From NCBI GenBank assembly GCA_963662265.2, contig CAXXHA010000001.1, positions 32,001 to 96,000 on the forward strand: DNA of 64,000 bases. The letters run 5' to 3'. Of the stretch, positions 9,329 to 54,252 are shown in pieces; position 1 is the stretch's first letter; every line of letters begins with the position of its first letter. Position numbers and translations under genes: made by a program. This DNA is from Spirochaetia bacterium. GTDB lineage: Bacteria > Spirochaetota > Spirochaetia > CADAEX01. The notes under the pieces were generated by a model. That model worked only from the letters and a program-made list of their open reading frames with translations, searched no databases and had not been told where the DNA came from.

Positions 9329-9921
9329 AGCTGCTTCCCTTTTCTTTTATCCTGCTTGCAATTCTGTAGCTGAACTCAATACAGTCAAGTTTAATCCCTT
9401 TTACCTTGAGCCCAAGGTAATAATAAAAACAGATAGAAGGTATTGCGACTGCAAGTCCCATTATTGTTGTAAGCAGAGCCTCCCATATTCCCGATGCAAG
9501 AAGGGCTGTATCTGCAGCTTCTAGAGAGAGGGAACGGAACATTGACACCATCCCAAGCATTGTCCCCATAAGCCCCATAAGGGGGGGATACAGAGGATAT
9601 AAGCTTGAGAACAACAAGAGCCCTGCCTGTTTTTATAAAATATTTATTAAAAAGATATGCAACTTCAGCCCTCAGATCTCCCGAGTGGTCAATGTGTACA
9701 CCTGCAATATCTTTAAGAACAAGCATTATAGGATTCCTGCATTCAATATCATTATCAAGAATATCTTTTTCATTATTTTCAATCCGGCTGAATTCGCAGT
9801 AAAATCCTCTTTCAACCATTGTGATAAAAACCGTGTTTTTTATAAAAAGATATAAGCTTATAAGTCCGGCAGCAGAAATACAAATTCCCGAAACCCCTGT
9901 TTTCTGGAAGAAATCAATCAT
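9321..9921 (-). CDS. exbB: ExbB/MotA/TolQ proton channel, split by a +1 frameshift in a G7 run
   Basis: ORFs 9391-9921 and 9321-9617 join as ISSVSP-LMGLMGTMLGM...GIWEALLTTIMGLAVAIP if one G of 9581-9587 is removed. Confidence 0.85.
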
Positions 9922-10123
9922 ATGCCTGCCTCTTTTGAATATGTCATATCCGGTTCAATAATTATTTCATTTTTATATTCAACTTTTAGAATTACCATGA
10001 ATATTAATTTCATTATACCTGGAACCTTTTTCCTTTATATTTTTTAAAACAAAACATAGGCATATTTTACTGCAGAACACTTTGTATTTAACAAATAATT
10101 ATATCCTGATGCGGCATACCTTT

Positions 10124-10160
10124 AATTAGATATATCTTATCTTTTTAGATAATTCTAACT
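10124..10160. promoter_or_regulatory. Tandem DtxR-type boxes upstream of exbBD-tonB
   Basis: TTAG-ATATAT-CTTA (10126) and TTAG-ATAATT-CTAA (10145), 19 bp apart; TTGACA (minus) at 10172-10177. Confidence 0.75.
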
Positions 10161-10284
10161 TTTTTATATTTTGTCAAGAGGATAACATTACATAAAATAC
10201 TTTGCAGCCGATATAATAAGACACGAGTAATTAAGTCCGGAAAAATAATCCTGAATTATAAGGCAATAAAGAATAGCTGATTGC

Positions 10285-39615: not shown

Positions 39616-39792
39616 TTATTTTTTTAAATCCTTACAGGTGCAATTGTCTCCGCAGCATGTTCCCTCGCTGCAGCTGCACGATCCTTCACTGCAGCTGCAG
39701 GAACTTTCTTTTCCTGTAAACAGCCTGTATGACCGTCTGAGCAGAAATACAACAGCAATTGTTACCAATCCACCAACTAGAAATATTTTCAA
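39616..39792 (-). CDS. FeoB-associated Cys-rich membrane protein
   Basis: TTG start after GAGGAG, one TM, then SCSCSEGSCSCSEGTCCGDNCTC. Confidence 0.75.
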   Translation of the reverse strand: MKIFLVGGLVTIAVVFLLRRSYRLFTGKESSCSCSEGSCSCSEGTCCGDNCTCKDLKK

Positions 39793-39807
39793 AACACTCT
39801 CCTCGTT

Positions 39808-39844
39808 TATTAGACACATCTTATATTATTAGTTTATACTAACT
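39808..39844. promoter_or_regulatory. Tandem DtxR-type boxes
   Basis: TTAG-ACACAT-CTTA (39810) and TTAG-TTTATA-CTAA (39829); TTGACA (minus) 39859-39864. Confidence 0.8.
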
Positions 39845-48474: not shown

Positions 48475-51400
48475 TTATTTCAGGGTCCTGCTGACCCGCC
48501 CGTAAAGGTCATGGTCAATGCTGTTATAGATTACAGGTGAATCAAGAGACATATTGTCGCTGCTGTAGGGAACAACGCTTTTTGCATAAGTACTGTTCTT
48601 CCATCCCGAATTGAGAAGGATCCATTTCATGTTGAGCTGTGCAAGCGGCTTTGTAAGTGTCTTATCCATAGTCACAGGATCACGCATTAAAGTATCATAA
48701 AGCTCTGATGACTGTGACAGATATACAAGAGATTTTGAATAGTATTCCTGGTTATGATTTTTCTCAGCAAGTTTAAAAAGGGTAACTCCCTGGTTGTTAT
48801 AAACCTGCATCAATTTTTCAAGAACTTCCCGCTGGTCCTTTCTTCTGTCAAGATCAAATACTTTTTCATGTTCCCGCCAGTATTCCATCTTTTCTATCAC
48901 ACGGTCATAGTAGGCCTTTGCAGGGGAGAAAACATCATAGTTGAATGAAGCATTGGCAAATGCAAACAGAGCAGCTTCATTTTCTCTCGCATTCAGCGAT
49001 ATGTCATAGAATTTTTCTGCTGCCTTGCTGTAGTTTCTGTTCTTGTAGTTGATAAACCCTATTTTATAATCAAGATTATCTGTTTTATACCCGGTATTAA
49101 ATGCCTTTGCATAATATTTAAGAGCTTCGTTGTATTTTCCCGCGTTATAATAATATACATCACCGAGATCCTCATATATATGACCGTAGGAAGCTGTATC
49201 ACCGGGAAGAGGATAATATTTTTCAAACCTGTCGACAGCTTTTTTATAATAACGCTGGGCATCCAGGATTTCATTATCATTATAATAGAATTTTCCGAGC
49301 CTGTTCTGGGTTAAAATATCCATACGGTTACGCTGGGAAACAGCATAGTTATATGAATGCGGATAATTATCGCGTATGTAACCCATATCTGTTTTATTCA
49401 AAAGATTTTCTATTGTACTCAAGGCTCTCCTTTCAAGATCTTTCTTTTCCATTCTGTTCCAGTATCTTGAAAGCTGATAGTGAGGTTCGATCAGGTTCTT
49501 GTCCTGGTTTGAAACAGAGATCAGTTTTTCTTCAACACCGTCAAGATTATCATGATCAATCATATACCTGTAATAATCTGCAATCATGTAGGAATCTGCA
49601 TATTTCTCTTTTATGTTTTCAACATAATTCCTGAATTCTCCAAGAATTGAATAATATTTTCTGGCATCAACAGATTTCGCTTCTCCTGCTTCAACATCGG
49701 AGAGTGCTTTTTCCTCTAAAATATTGATTTTACCGGAATGAAAATAATATGCCATTTTTCTGAAAATCAACCCCGGTTTGTTGCCGAATTTGGAAAGTGA
49801 ATCATTAAGAACATATTCTGCAGAATCAAACTGCTTGTTTTCCAGTTCCCCCCAGTTAAGGAAATTATCTATCCTGGCAAGGAGAGCTTCATAATCCCAC
49901 TTGTTTCCTTTCTGCAGGATAAAATCATCAAGAATCCTGTCACTTTCAGCATATTCACCCATATAGAATGTTTTTAAAACTGCAAAATCAAGAAATCCTT
50001 TCTTGTCGGTCGGGAAATAACCTGTATGCTGATCTTTCCGGCTTTTCTCCCGTTCACTGCTCAGCGCACGACCGAGCATTTCTGTATATTTCTGTTCGGC
50101 ACGTGTATATTCTCTCCTTTCAATATAACCTTCGGCATACCTGTAAAACTGTTTTTTAAACGGTTTCAGCCTGCTTGCCTTGTTAAACAGCCTGTCAGAT
50201 GCTTTGTAATTTTCATTTTCAAGCTGCTCAAACCCCCTGTTATAAAGATAGGATGAATAAACAGGATCATATACCTGCTTTTTAATGACAAAAACAGTAA
50301 AGAAAAGAGCTACTGTAAAAAGAGCAACCTTGCCTGCGTAAGGAAGAATCTGGTGCCTGAGAATATAGGCAAAAGTCTTTTTTTCCTCTTCAAGCTCTTC
50401 CCATGTTTTTCTTTCATACTGTGAAGGGATTCTTATTTTTCTGCCGGTGATTTTTTCAGCAAGACCTGCTATTTCCTTTACAGATGCACCTGTTGCAAGT
50501 TTATCCACAAGGTTATTGAGCCTTTTACCGGATAGTCCCTTGTTGCCGATTAAATCTTCGATAGTAAGTTTCAGGTTTCTCGGCAGCTGATTAAGAGTAT
50601 CTGTTACACGTCCGAGTTTCTCCTGATCTATGCTGAACTCAAGGTCTTCTTCTGCAGTCTCGGGAACAGCGTAATCCTGTCCGCCTGAAAAATCACCCGC
50701 CCCCGGGCTTTCAGGAATTATTTCCTCTTCTATCTCTTCAAGACTTGAATATTCCTCGCCAAGGTCTTCAAGGCTGAATTCATCAGCCTCTCCAGCTGAG
50801 GCTTCAGGAGCAGCGCTGATATCTCCGACATCTTCAAGATCTCCAAGATCTTCAAGACTGCCAAGGCTGTCTTCCCCTTCCAGATCATCATCAGGAGTTA
50901 TTTCAAATTCATCATCAAGGGATATATCTTCTAGCGAGCCGAGATCAAACTCTTCATCTGATTCAGCAGCCGGTTCTGCCTGGGGAAGTTCTGCGGATTC
51001 TTCCGCAGCTGTTTCAGGTTCCAGATCTGCATCAAGGTCCTCGGGAAGGTCAAAATCTTCAAATTCGGAAACATCATCCTGAGACTCCTCTGAAATATCA
51101 GGAATTTCAAAATCTTCAGTTTCACTTTCAAAACTTTCAATATCTGTATCGCCCCTTCCTTCGGCAGGTTCAGGCGGCATTTCGAATTCTTCATCAATTC
51201 CGGCATCCTGGGGAACTTCATCAAAAACAGGTTCTTCTGCTAAATCTGCTGTCTCTGCTCCATCATCAAGGTCATCAGGGAGATCAAAGGCTTCCAGTTC
51301 ACCAGCATCAAAATCAAGCCCTTCATCAAACTCATCTGAAACAGCTTCCTCCCCTTCCAGCAGTGAAAAATCTGAATCAGGAACATCAGTCATACCGGAA

Positions 51401-52224
51401 AAATCATCAGCAGAAGACTCATCGAAAGGCGGCGCAGCTTCATCCGGGGTTATAATATCATCAGGCATCAAATCTTCCGAAGTTTCTTCAGAAGAAATCA
51501 CATCTGCCTGTTCTGAATCAATATCAGGAATTGAAAAATCCTCACCAAGATCTGATATATCAAAATCTCCGGCTTCGGAAGGCTCAATATTACCGAAATC
51601 TTCTATAGTTCCGCCGATTTCCTCAGCTGATTCTTCAGGAGCTGCAAATTCCTCAGATGACGGAATATCAAAACTCTCCGGTTCAATATCACCGATATCA
51701 GAAGTGTCTGAAATTAAATCCTCATCAAGATCAAGATCTTCAGGCATATCAAACATACCCGACATATCTTCTGATAAGTCTTCAGAAGCTTCACCTTCAG
51801 CAGTTTCTGGTAATTCTTCAAGATCCGGAAGTGAAAAATCCTCTTCAGCTGTTTCAGCAACAAGCTCATCAGACATTAGATCGCTTTCAATATCAGATTC
51901 AGAACTTTCAAACATTGAATCAAGATCAGGAATACTGCCGGTTTCATCGAAAGCAGAAGTCTCAGGACCTGTTTCACCTTCATCGGGCAAAGATCCAAGA
52001 TCAGTATCAAAAACATCGGGAGATTCGCCTTCACCGGGAATTACATCAGAAGATTCAGCAACATCTGAGATATCATTGAGAAGGGCAGAAATATCATCAG
52101 GCACACCCTGTTCAGGAGGGGGTATATCTACAATTTTCTCCCCGCGCTCAGCAAGTATCTGCTCTTCGTTTCCCAGTGAGTTAATTTGTCTTTTAAACTG
52201 CTCAATATCTTCTAACTTAGGCAT
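48475..52224 (-). CDS. flcA: Periplasmic flagellar collar protein FlcA-like
   Basis: MPKLEDIEQFK..I.SLGNE start, very long acidic low-complexity region, LPRNLK..IE.LI, single TM, then TPR repeats; architecture typical of spirochetes. Confidence 0.75.
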   Translation of the reverse strand: MPKLEDIEQFKRQINSLGNEEQILAERGEKIVDIPPPEQGVPDDISALLNDISDVAESSDVIPGEGESPDVFDTDLGSLPDEGETGPETSAFDETGSIPDLDSMFESSESDIESDLMSDELVAETAEEDFSLPDLEELPETAEGEASEDLSEDMSGMFDMPEDLDLDEDLISDTSDIGDIEPESFDIPSSEEFAAPEESAEEIGGTIEDFGNIEPSEAGDFDISDLGEDFSIPDIDSEQADVISSEETSEDLMPDDIITPDEAAPPFDESSADDFSGMTDVPDSDFSLLEGEEAVSDEFDEGLDFDAGELEAFDLPDDLDDGAETADLAEEPVFDEVPQDAGIDEEFEMPPEPAEGRGDTDIESFESETEDFEIPDISEESQDDVSEFEDFDLPEDLDADLEPETAAEESAELPQAEPAAESDEEFDLGSLEDISLDDEFEITPDDDLEGEDSLGSLEDLGDLEDVGDISAAPEASAGEADEFSLEDLGEEYSSLEEIEEEIIPESPGAGDFSGGQDYAVPETAEEDLEFSIDQEKLGRVTDTLNQLPRNLKLTIEDLIGNKGLSGKRLNNLVDKLATGASVKEIAGLAEKITGRKIRIPSQYERKTWEELEEEKKTFAYILRHQILPYAGKVALFTVALFFTVFVIKKQVYDPVYSSYLYNRGFEQLENENYKASDRLFNKASRLKPFKKQFYRYAEGYIERREYTRAEQKYTEMLGRALSSEREKSRKDQHTGYFPTDKKGFLDFAVLKTFYMGEYAESDRILDDFILQKGNKWDYEALLARIDNFLNWGELENKQFDSAEYVLNDSLSKFGNKPGLIFRKMAYYFHSGKINILEEKALSDVEAGEAKSVDARKYYSILGEFRNYVENIKEKYADSYMIADYYRYMIDHDNLDGVEEKLISVSNQDKNLIEPHYQLSRYWNRMEKKDLERRALSTIENLLNKTDMGYIRDNYPHSYNYAVSQRNRMDILTQNRLGKFYYNDNEILDAQRYYKKAVDRFEKYYPLPGDTASYGHIYEDLGDVYYYNAGKYNEALKYYAKAFNTGYKTDNLDYKIGFINYKNRNYSKAAEKFYDISLNARENEAALFAFANASFNYDVFSPAKAYYDRVIEKMEYWREHEKVFDLDRRKDQREVLEKLMQVYNNQGVTLFKLAEKNHNQEYYSKSLVYLSQSSELYDTLMRDPVTMDKTLTKPLAQLNMKWILLNSGWKNSTYAKSVVPYSSDNMSLDSPVIYNSIDHDLYGRVSRTLK

Positions 52225-52512
52225 AAATCCCTTATTCAGAATGTCGGAAAAGTGGGAATACTTACTTAGGCCGAAATTCCTAATTTTGTTATTTTATGCA
52301 ATTTTTTTACTTCATATCGAAAATATAAATTGTTATTACAAACCGCAGTATATTTTTACCCGGATAAAATTATTATTTCCAATTATAAAACAGGTAAAAC
52401 AAATACAAACTGCCGGCTCAGTTAAACTCTATACTATTTTAATAAATAAAAAAAGCTTAAAAACAATAGCGTGATCAGATGTTTATTATTGAGAACGCTG
52501 TATATGGTTATT

Positions 52513-52543
52513 AAAAAAGCGGTATTCAGGTGAATACCGCTTT
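52513..52543 (-). terminator. Intrinsic terminator of candidate sRNA
   Basis: AAAGCGGTATTCA-GG-TGAATACCGCTTT with U6 on the minus strand. Confidence 0.75.
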
Positions 52544-52686
52544 ATGAAAAAACAGGAAGTTTAATGTCTTACATTCAGCGTTTATGACGGATAAAAGCTG
52601 AATACTCTGTGTATCCCAATACACATCAATTAATAGGAGTGTGATGAGTCTAACTTTAGTTATCTATTAAAGTTAGACTCATCTAA
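52513..52686 (-). ncRNA. Candidate metal-repressed small RNA (~170 nt)
   Basis: Metal box at the 5' end, three hairpins, anti-SD single-stranded linkers, own terminator, no ORF on the minus strand. Confidence 0.55.
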
Positions 52687-52688
52687 TA
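52671..52688. promoter_or_regulatory. DtxR-type box outside the island
   Basis: AGTTAG-ACTCAT-CTAATA; possible promoter TTGCTT (52714-52719, minus), 17 bp spacer, TGn-GATATT. Confidence 0.65.
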
Positions 52689-52707
52689 AGAATATCGCAT
52701 TATTATA

Positions 52708-52747
52708 AAAAAAAAGCAAGCCGGAAAAACAAATTCCCGGCTTTTTT
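52708..52747. terminator. Terminator of coaX-pdxST (possibly bidirectional)
   Basis: AAGCCGG...CCGGCTT flanked by A- and T-tracts. Confidence 0.7.
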
Positions 52748-52764
52748 ATTAAATATTTCAATAA

Positions 52765-53340
52765 TCAGTATACAACTTCATTGAAAAAATATCTGTGAAG
52801 AGAATTATCATCTGTAAGCTCGGGATGAAAACTCGCTGCCAGTACATTTTTTTCCCGGAAAATTACTGCCTGCCTTTTTAAATACCCAAGCTTATCAACA
52901 TGCTTTCCCACACCTGTTACTTTAGGGGCTCGGATAAAAATCCCCCTTAAAATTCCGCTGCCTGACAAGGGTGTAGAAATTTCAGCATGAAAACTGTCCT
53001 TCTGCCTGCCGTAGCTGTTTCTCTCAACCTCAATATCAATAAGTCCAAGCGGTTTGAACGGGAGCCTGTCTGCATCCCTTGAAGCAATAATAAGCCCCGC
53101 ACATGTACCGAAATAGGGCAGGCCTGTTATAACAGCATCAGAAAGATATTCTCGCAATCCCCTCCTTTCCAAAAGACGGAGCATGACAGTGCTTTCCCCG
53201 CCGGGAACTATTATTGATGAAATATGATTAAAATCAGACCGGTTTTTAACCAGTCTGACCTTATAACCAAGTTTGCTGCAAACCTGCTCATGCTTTTCAA
53301 ATCCCCCCTGTAGGGCAAGTATTCCCGCAGTATGAGACAT
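52765..53340 (-). CDS. pdxT: PLP synthase glutaminase subunit
   Basis: GILALQG, PGGEST, GTCAG, RNSYGRQ, FIRAP, FHPELT. Confidence 0.95.
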   Translation of the reverse strand: MSHTAGILALQGGFEKHEQVCSKLGYKVRLVKNRSDFNHISSIIVPGGESTVMLRLLERRGLREYLSDAVITGLPYFGTCAGLIIASRDADRLPFKPLGLIDIEVERNSYGRQKDSFHAEISTPLSGSGILRGIFIRAPKVTGVGKHVDKLGYLKRQAVIFREKNVLAASFHPELTDDNSLHRYFFNEVVY

Positions 53341-53343
53341 AGG

Positions 53344-54252
53344 CTACCATCCGCGTACAGACATCTTCTGCTGTGGAATCAGCTCATCACAGTTTATTCC
53401 TGTCATCGGAACTCCGAGTGATTCTGATACTTCAGCAAGTCTGAAAGGATCATCATAACAAGTTACAGCTTCGACTATTGCCTTTGCCCTCTTTTCAGGA
53501 TTGGATGACTTGAAAATACCTGATCCGACAAAAACAGATTCAGCCCCGAGATGCATCATAAGCGCAGCATCTGCAGGTGTTGCAACACCGCCTGCGGAAA
53601 AATTAGGCACAGGAAGCTTGCCTTTCTGTGCCACTTCAAGTACCAGCTCGTAGGGAGAGCCTATTTCTTTTGCTGCTGTCATCAGAGACTCCCTGGGAAG
53701 AGCTGCTATCCGCCTGATATCTTCCTTCAAAGTCCTCATATGCCTTACTGCTTCAACTATATCGCCTGTTCCGGGTTCACCCTTTGTCCTTATAAGGGCA
53801 GCTCCTTCACCTATACGCCTCAGAGCCTCGCCAAGGTTTCGACAGCCACATACAAAAGGTACTTTAAAGCGGGATTTATCAACATGATACAAGTCATCGG
53901 CAGGGGTGAGAACTTCGCTTTCATCGACAAAATCAATTTCAAGAGCCTCAAGAATCATGGCTTCAGCAAAATGCCCGATCCGGCATTTTGCCATTACAGG
54001 AATTGATACTGCATCCTGAATACCTTTAATCATTGCGGGGTCTGACATTCTGGAAACACCGCCGGCTGCACGTATATCTGCGGGAACTCTTTCAAGCGCC
54101 ATAACTGCGCAGGCACCTGCATCCTCGGCAATTTTTGCCTGATCAGGAGTAACAACATCCATTATTACCCCCCCTTTCAGCATTTCAGCAAGGCCCAGGT
54201 TTACTCTCCATCTTTCCGGCTGCCTGTCTGACCAGTACTCTTTTTTTTCCAT
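53344..54252 (-). CDS. pdxS: PLP synthase lyase subunit
   Basis: [40 protein letters not shown]. Confidence 0.97.

Follow-up and report, generated by a model that had tools for sequence, protein, structure and literature searches.

Introduction

Among the metal-repressed small RNAs (sRNAs) described to date, IsrR of Staphylococcus aureus is the closest in architecture, though not by homology, to the element considered here, a candidate non-coding unit on the minus strand between pdxT and flcA in a 64,000-nt stretch of the genome of a Spirochaetia bacterium (assembly GCA_963662265.2, contig CAXXHA010000001.1, positions 32,001 to 96,000; hereafter the window, whose numbering we use unless otherwise stated). 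IsrR is a 174-nt RNA with three stem-loops, a canonical Rho-independent terminator, two Fur boxes placed at its promoter and start site, and three C runs (PMC9410917). Its single-stranded C-rich or pyrimidine-rich regions are aimed at Shine-Dalgarno sites in an AT-rich genome and it is independent of Hfq; both the RNA and its control by Fur are conserved across the genus and have been proven by experiment (PMC9410917). As summarized in the same source, FsrA also binds Shine-Dalgarno sites via a C-rich motif, and MrsI of Mycobacterium tuberculosis is a predicted IdeR-regulated RNA in a host without Hfq (PMC9410917). On the side of spirochete metal regulators, TroR of Treponema denticola and T. 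pallidum is a DtxR-family repressor associated with an 18-bp dyad upstream of troA (PMC2628430).

The candidate unit resembles IsrR in size (~172-183 nt against 174 nt), in its three stem-loops and terminator, in bearing a predicted metal-regulator box at the promoter and start site, in its pyrimidine-rich single strands, and in that no Hfq gene was found in this genome. It is unlike IsrR in having a single box, which differs in sequence, and no pyrimidine motifs other than CUCCU and CUUCCU, in being missing from both congeners, in showing no sequence or Rfam similarity, and in being known from its sequence alone. With RyhB, PrrF1/2 and FsrA it shares an iron-regulon box over the promoter of a small gene that lacks an open reading frame (ORF) and ends in an intrinsic terminator, but it differs from them in the absence of Rfam homology, in the chaperones involved and in that no target enrichment was seen, and those RNAs are conserved in their families whereas the unit is not. 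MrsI would be the nearest precedent if a DtxR/IdeR-family protein bound the unit's box: the two hosts are alike in having no known Hfq, but here the candidates for the regulator are two Fur-family and two DtxR-family genes. The TroR operator is likewise a palindrome at a sigma-70-type promoter in a spirochete, but its four-base mutated form, the only form compared, shows no TTAG-N6-CTAA (PMC2628430), which leaves no ground for equating the unit's box with the TroR site.

The original prediction for this DNA was of a trans-acting, iron-sparing sRNA repressed by a DtxR-family protein, of a kind for which it knew of no spirochete example, and our search of titles and abstract openings likewise turned up no iron-responsive sRNA from a spirochete. 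In its predicted fold the unit has the architecture of the metal-repressed sRNAs described so far, with three stem-loops, pyrimidine-rich linkers that are unpaired, and an intrinsic terminator, and one of the features that define the class, an iron- or metal-regulon operator over the promoter, is present at the level of the sequence. Conservation together with the box among relatives, a habit of the class and not part of its definition, was not seen: the unit is absent from two of two congeners, from two metagenomic relatives and from all 19 family genomes searched. What we consider plausible is a young, ORF-less non-coding unit on the minus strand, controlled by a metal box and confined to one lineage. 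A box-controlled minus-strand transcript is the single most likely reading of the locus, tentative though it is, and a non-functional relic is about equally likely.

A candidate minus-strand unit without a credible open reading frame

The unit lies in the 540-nt spacer between pdxT and flcA (52225-52764), on the same strand as both genes and 289 nt upstream of the flcA start. Read along the minus strand, it opens with a putative sigma-70-type promoter (52691-52719) in which TTGCTT (52719-52714) is followed by a 17-nt spacer and by TG-c-GATATT, the -10 hexamer being at 52696-52691; an alternative -10, a perfect TATAAT, is found at 52707-52702 but with a poor -35. The TTAG-N6-CTAA box (52673-52686) matches 11 of the 12 specified positions of TTAGAT-nn-ATCTAA and begins 4 nt past the -10, so that it covers the predicted start site. 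Hairpin 1 (52643-52683), a perfectly paired stem of 16 bp closed by a 9-nt loop (-22.0 kcal/mol, with none of 200 shuffles as stable), sits at or adjoins the predicted 5' end of the RNA, and its 5' arm overlaps the box. Beyond it come linker 1 (52626-52642), which is largely unpaired and carries CUCCU, the complement of the Shine-Dalgarno core; hairpins 2 and 3 (52625-52608 and 52604-52572; jointly -16.4 kcal/mol, 5 of 200 shuffles as stable); and linker 2 (52544-52571), which is partly unpaired and carries CUUCCU and UUUUUUCAU. The unpaired probability of both linkers in the predicted fold is ~0.5-0.9. The unit closes with an intrinsic terminator (52513-52543) consisting of a 12-bp stem (52543-52516) and a U6 tract running to 52513 (-16.8 kcal/mol, 0 of 200 shuffles as stable). 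The predicted RNA would be ~172-183 nt long, and the minus-strand RNA of 183 nt folds with z = -8.49, again with none of 200 shuffles as stable.

ORFs of at least 20 amino acids are limited here to one of 32 amino acids with a GTG start and one of 33 with a TTG start on the minus strand, and to one of 20 on the plus strand. No Shine-Dalgarno motif was seen by eye upstream of either minus-strand ORF and neither ORF matched an NCBIfam family; nothing was found that would pass for a small-protein or type I toxin gene, of which an ORF behind a ribosome-binding site and encoding a plausible product would be expected. The self-contained, ORF-less minus-strand unit of the original prediction, with its three hairpins and U-tailed terminator, is thus where it was said to be, and so are the elements of its promoter, although the promoter is weak and went unlisted by a consensus scanner.

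A box shared with an iron-uptake island

The pattern TTAGN6CTAA occurs 10 times in the window, between 8125 and 52686, where 1.68 +/- 1.21 occurrences are expected and none of 100 shuffles reaches 10. The 3.77-Mb assembly contains 23 sites, 11 of which fall inside 59 kb (C1:40125-98808). The two congeners, G001 and G002, contain the pattern 11 and 8 times and its reversed control 116 and 120 times, and here too the box clusters near flcA (5 of the 11 sites in G001 and 3 of the 8 in G002). Four congener 14-mers are identical to box sites in the source genome, an identity that does not imply orthology of the promoters.

The nine other sites in the window lie upstream of genes encoding a TetR protein, a 176-amino-acid protein, two TonB-dependent receptors, ChaN/MatE, an HD protein, a small Cys-rich ORF, feoA-feoA-feoB and a periplasmic binding protein. 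The 176-amino-acid protein belongs to no family and is the first in a run that contains ExbD and TonB-C genes; the ChaN haem-binding gene and the MatE gene are divergently transcribed at their box site; and the island also contains two flavodoxin and two DUF4198 genes. Seven of these nine sites adjoin a TTGACA or TTGGCA -35 with a 17-nt spacer, and their -10 elements start at -23 to +14 relative to the box, a range that includes the unit's own -10, at -10. Such placement over predicted promoters is the position expected for a repressor. At several sites of the island a degenerate second box accompanies the first, the two forming a tandem offset by 19 nt.

The copy at 52673-52686 is exact, as had been claimed when the box was first noted at ten promoter regions of the island. 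We estimate from intergenic composition that the chance of an exact core match in a 190-nt piece is below 1 in 100. Because the box is rare and clustered, because the unit's copy keeps 11 of the 12 palindromic positions, and because such a match is improbable by chance, the unit very probably holds a true member of the operator family of the iron regulon, in the form of a single box.

Some further sites deserve description in their own right. An exact box outside the window (C1:98808-98821), with the same 14-mer in G001, lies in a terminator loop between convergent genes; we considered it as a second orphan unit and rejected it, as this setting makes it probably a chance match to the pattern. 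The small ORF at 39616-39819 on the minus strand is preceded by a tandem box and a TTGACA promoter and codes for a membrane helix that leads into a Cys-rich tail; it may resemble FeoB-associated Cys-rich proteins, a likeness left unconfirmed by NCBIfam, in which it matched no family. Finally, in the region 9921-10158, a leader of 224 nt separates the predicted box-controlled promoter at 10145-10180 from an ORF (9391-9921) that matches no family.

Candidates for the protein that might bind the box are encoded by two Fur-family genes (C40 and C29) and two DtxR-family genes (C3 and C15) of this genome, none of which adjoins a box. With four candidate genes, none of them beside a box, and with a mutated TroR operator that does not resemble it, the assignment to a DtxR-family repressor in the original prediction has to be regarded as a guess. 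The box may resemble the DtxR/IdeR consensus. A rubrerythrin gene adjoins the Fur-family gene on C40 (G000:C40:3766-5645), and the two look like a PerR-type pair and not like an iron regulator. No Hfq gene was found in the assembly, which is 90.6% complete; this fits an Hfq-independent mode of action, if any mode exists.

Probable origin by insertion into the pdxT 3' untranslated region

Both congeners retain the order pdxS-pdxT-flcA, with spacers of 181 nt (G001) and 88 nt (G002) that do not contain the unit. Relative to theirs, the spacer studied here is a patchwork of insertions and deletions that has in common with them only the flcA 5' untranslated region (UTR; the same as in G001 at 70 of 73 positions and as in G002 at 55 of 57), a promoter-like stretch downstream of the unit (38 of 47 positions shared with G001) and pieces of the pdxT terminator. 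One of these pieces is informative about the unit itself: 52544-52532 agrees in 12 of 13 positions with the 5' half of the terminator that follows pdxT in G001, and the terminator of the unit is therefore most simply the old pdxT terminator. We conclude that the terminator at 52513-52543 is probably ancestral. Within linker 2, TTCCTG aligns with ATCCTG of G001, and the 3' part of this linker may be old pdxT 3'-UTR sequence.

The remaining ~190 nt (~52557-52746) look like an insertion into the pdxT 3' UTR that brought a new pdxT terminator with it; its borders are approximate because the alignment is fragmentary. The present pdxT terminator (52708-52748, minus strand) sits within this lineage-specific insertion, directly behind the pdxT stop codon, and has a stem at 52743-52718 (10 pairs, 5 of them GC) followed by T9, with an energy of -15.5 kcal/mol. 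As a separate observation, the arm motif GUAUUCA/UGAAUAC is common to hairpin 3 (52572-52604) and the unit's terminator (52516-52543); hairpin 3 is also similar to the pdxT terminator of G001 and may have arisen from the old terminator by duplication and decay.

We also asked whether the inserted piece could be a miniature inverted-repeat transposable element or another dispersed repeat, and rejected this. There is no second copy in the rest of the source genome, in which the best match apart from the unit itself spans 25 nt (E = 0.11), and being present as a single copy excludes a dispersed repeat; by eye, the borders have no terminal repeats beyond the two terminators. In Rfam release 15, the window has no match at the gathering threshold and 29 sub-threshold matches at E <= 10, the best scoring 25.7 bits against a threshold of 59. 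As the original prediction would have it, then, no known RNA family and no repeat family is matched.

Distribution and the possibility of a relic

The reading of the unit as a box-controlled minus-strand transcript has to be weighed against a body of contrary findings, to which its absence from the congeners belongs and of which its wider distribution is the next. Contigs of four public sequencing runs were compared with the stretch (nine of ten listed runs contain part of it); their depth is 2-4, and those that lack the unit come from metagenomes and are relatives only by the 94% or 85% identity of their flanks. In a 4450-nt metagenomic contig with flanks 94% identical, 52269 is joined to 52775 by 53 other letters, without the unit, and a 6970-nt contig of ~85% identity is also without it. 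A contig from another study (X4 record 7) contains 52225-52715 without a single difference, and no sequence variation was seen inside the unit among the contigs of the four runs. None of 19 family genomes matches the unit at E <= 0.001; among 400 genomes of the class, 32 have only matches of 19-33 nt at the level of chance (per-genome E of 6e-5 or weaker); and the plasmid and phage collections contain no match. Exact-pattern scans with the arms of hairpin 1 returned no matches in either genome or metagenome contigs, collections from which the organism's own and very near genomes may be omitted. When related loci were sought through PdxT, the best identity among the matches listed (at least 80 per collection) was 52% in metagenome and 48% in genome contigs, and none of the listed loci was from the genus. 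The flcA-pdxT intergenic regions of these relatives, whose comparison the original prediction proposed, lack the unit. A core iron-sparing regulator would be expected to be conserved at least genus-wide, and the unit is accordingly a poor fit to one.

This pattern bears most directly on the idea that the insert is a non-functional relic of an iron-regulated promoter region, acquired by recombination or horizontal transfer, whose gene was lost or never carried and whose box may at most act as a decoy for the repressor. Terminator, promoter, operator and leader are laid out in the insert just as in a spacer between co-directional genes, and the insert is confined to this lineage, in a spacer that is a patchwork of insertions and deletions relative to the congeners; moreover, the promoter ranks with the island's weakest and, as described below, target enrichment is lacking. 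Yet no donor was found in the organism's own genome, in its relatives, or among plasmids and phages, and the unit ends neatly at a strong terminator. Nor is there much sign of decay, as hairpin 1 keeps a perfect stem of 16 bp and the box retains 11 of 12 positions of its palindromic consensus. We regard a relic as a serious contender, of much the same modest likelihood as a box-controlled transcript.

Promoter strength, strand and possible effects in cis

The promoter and the fold are the next weak points of a box-controlled transcript. The promoter matches the consensus at 3 of 6 and 4 of 6 positions, helped by its TG extension; it is without the TTGACA -35 typical of most island promoters, and with a score of 8.5 it is among the three lowest of ten box-associated promoters. 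The consensus scanner listed neither this promoter nor the hairpin at 52543-52513, and the single box is unlike the tandem arrangement at several island sites. As for the fold, the plus strand does slightly better than the minus strand (z = -9.89), and as the hairpins are palindromes that fold on either strand, structure alone does not give the strand. We assign the unit to the minus strand because the 52543-52513 hairpin has its U-tail on that strand only (the plus-strand tail reads UUUAUGAA), and because the promoter score there, 8.5, exceeds that of the best plus-strand pair around the box, 6.5.

The slightly better fold of the plus strand raises the possibility of an RNA transcribed in that direction, from a weak promoter near 52490-52518 through two mini-ORFs of 8 and 7 codons, each introduced by an SD-N4-ATG (Shine-Dalgarno, four nucleotides, ATG) motif, to a bidirectional terminator near 52750; the stem at 52718-52743, although weaker on the plus strand, would be usable there (-10.6 kcal/mol, with a U6 tail). 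But the best -10 near 52513 lacks, by eye, the invariant final T, the scanner lists no plus-strand promoter in the spacer, and the best pair around the box is the low-scoring one mentioned above. The box would, in addition, be left without a role at the 3' end of such an RNA, and the mini-ORFs would be buried in stems. A plus-strand RNA therefore seems to us very improbable.

Somewhat less remote, but still quite improbable, is a role in cis, in which the box-bearing promoter feeds flcA by read-through or attenuation, or the hairpins shape and stabilize the 3' end of the pdxT transcript. The unit is on the strand of both genes and 289 nt before the flcA start, and the arms shared by hairpin 3 and the terminator make an alternative pairing conceivable. 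The alternative pairings, however, are far less stable than the fold with two hairpins (-8.1 and -9.7 as opposed to -28.2 kcal/mol), the terminator is strong, and flcA keeps the downstream promoter-like stretch and 5' UTR that it has in common with the congeners, relatives that manage without the unit. On these fold energies, and with flcA at that distance behind a promoter-like stretch of its own, an attenuator or riboswitch leader was rejected; no riboswitch family in Rfam matched the window.

Linkers and predicted targets

The linkers were examined by computing duplex energies with 3180 crude start regions (-30 to +21) and with internal windows of the same genes, with 100 random intergenic segments of the same length, scored on 250 starts, as controls. 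Both linkers are biased toward initiation regions, linker 1 by -1.22 kcal/mol (0 of 100 controls as biased) and linker 2 by -1.18 kcal/mol (1 of 100). Against a function in pairing, the absolute duplex energies are ordinary, being equalled or bettered by 42 and 23 of the 100 controls, respectively. Furthermore, the bias and the SD-N4-ATG motifs of the plus strand are one and the same fact, so that the bias cannot separate an evolved seed from relic ribosome-binding sites. Of the seeds against ribosome-binding sites and start codons that had been predicted, what stands is that the linkers are unpaired and biased to initiation regions; the rest is weakened by ordinary energies and by a bias that mirrors the motifs of the opposite strand.

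The 14 best predicted initiation regions for each linker are generic. We also assembled 44 iron-protein genes, using crude gene starts (2 rubrerythrin, 17 Fer4 and 26 radical-SAM genes, one gene being in two sets), and found no pairing preference in the full set (p = 0.57 for linker 1 and 0.17 for linker 2), in the 26 radical-SAM genes or in the two rubrerythrins. The 17 Fer4 genes do pair better (p = 0.012 and 0.002), a difference for which their stronger Shine-Dalgarno sites (p = 0.02) account: once these are corrected for, the signal falls to p = 0.14 and 0.025 and is equalled by 12 and 8 of 150 random segments. The enrichment of iron-protein mRNAs that had been expected among the targets is thus not significant once Shine-Dalgarno strength is controlled for; it gives no real support to iron-sparing targets, and with crude starts it is not strong counter-evidence either.

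These results are central to the proposal that the unit encodes a trans-acting, iron-sparing sRNA, an analogue of RyhB, PrrF and FsrA that is repressed by a DtxR-family protein and blocks the ribosome-binding sites of iron-protein mRNAs. All that speaks for a box-controlled minus-strand transcript also speaks for this proposal, the two flavodoxin genes of the island indicate that an iron-sparing programme exists here, and Fer4 genes do pair somewhat better before correction. The proposal is nevertheless improbable in our view: such an RNA would be unconserved even within the genus, the Fer4 signal is largely lost on correction and has no counterpart in the other iron genes, and the regulator could belong to the Fur or to the DtxR family. 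As a functional analogue of the iron-sparing sRNAs, the unit retains the box and the architecture; its lack of conservation speaks against it, and the predicted targets and the DtxR assignment lend it no support.

Flanking genes

The flanking genes are all on the minus strand. pdxS is at 53344-54252; pdxT, at 52765-53340, matches the Pfam SNO family with 154.8 bits; and flcA, at 48475-52224, matches the NCBIfam models FlcA_CTERM (442.9 bits, cut-off 300) and FlcA_NTERM (57.8 bits, cut-off 28), matches that agree with the spirochete host that had been proposed for this DNA. The ~60 nt just 5' of the flcA start (52225-52287) are almost invariant across the genus, in a spacer that is otherwise unalignable, and may be a conserved 5'-UTR element of this flagellar collar gene. 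The acidic N-terminal half of FlcA (48475-52224; L010 1564-3063; L011 1-1500) contains tandem peptide repeats with many D, E and F residues; the repeats are species-specific and vary in unit and in number among the three congeners.

Discussion

To an anatomy, an insertion and a membership in an iron-associated motif family that are matters of observation, we would add the following proposal. The ~190-nt insertion in the pdxT 3' UTR would have brought a pdxT terminator, a weak promoter, the box and three hairpins, and the insert would have combined with the older pdxT terminator downstream to form an ORF-less minus-strand unit of ~172-183 nt. A putative repressor, when loaded with metal, would occupy the box at about +1 to +14 and block transcription; when metal is scarce the promoter would fire, giving a structured small RNA that reaches from hairpin 1, or from just ahead of it, to the U-tailed terminator. 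If this RNA is active at all, it would most likely be an Hfq-independent anti-Shine-Dalgarno sRNA that acts, like IsrR and FsrA, through its CUCCU and CUUCCU linkers. Repressor binding, transcription and metal control, taken together as one inferred chain, seem to us possible but short of probable, and pairing of the RNA with targets is unlikely at best.

In its most far-reaching form, the proposal is that an sRNA gene has been caught at birth, an inserted promoter and operator of the iron regulon having come to lie before an old pdxT terminator and so given rise to a new metal-repressed, Hfq-independent, anti-Shine-Dalgarno riboregulator in a single species. We think this unlikely, but if true it would give the spirochetes their first described iron-responsive sRNA. 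Should the RNA be both made and metal-controlled, riboregulation in iron regulons would extend to the spirochetes, and the locus would be a dated example of the birth of an sRNA gene from an inserted promoter and operator and a pre-existing terminator. If instead the unit is silent, it would be a reminder that candidates consisting of a promoter plus a terminator in fast-evolving spacers need the support of conservation or expression, and that apparent seeds against ribosome-binding sites may only mirror relic ribosome-binding sites. Irrespective of whether the RNA is made, TTAG-N6-CTAA, often in tandem at a 19-nt offset, is defined here as a conserved marker box of the iron-uptake regulon in this genus, which opens the way to a search for its regulator.

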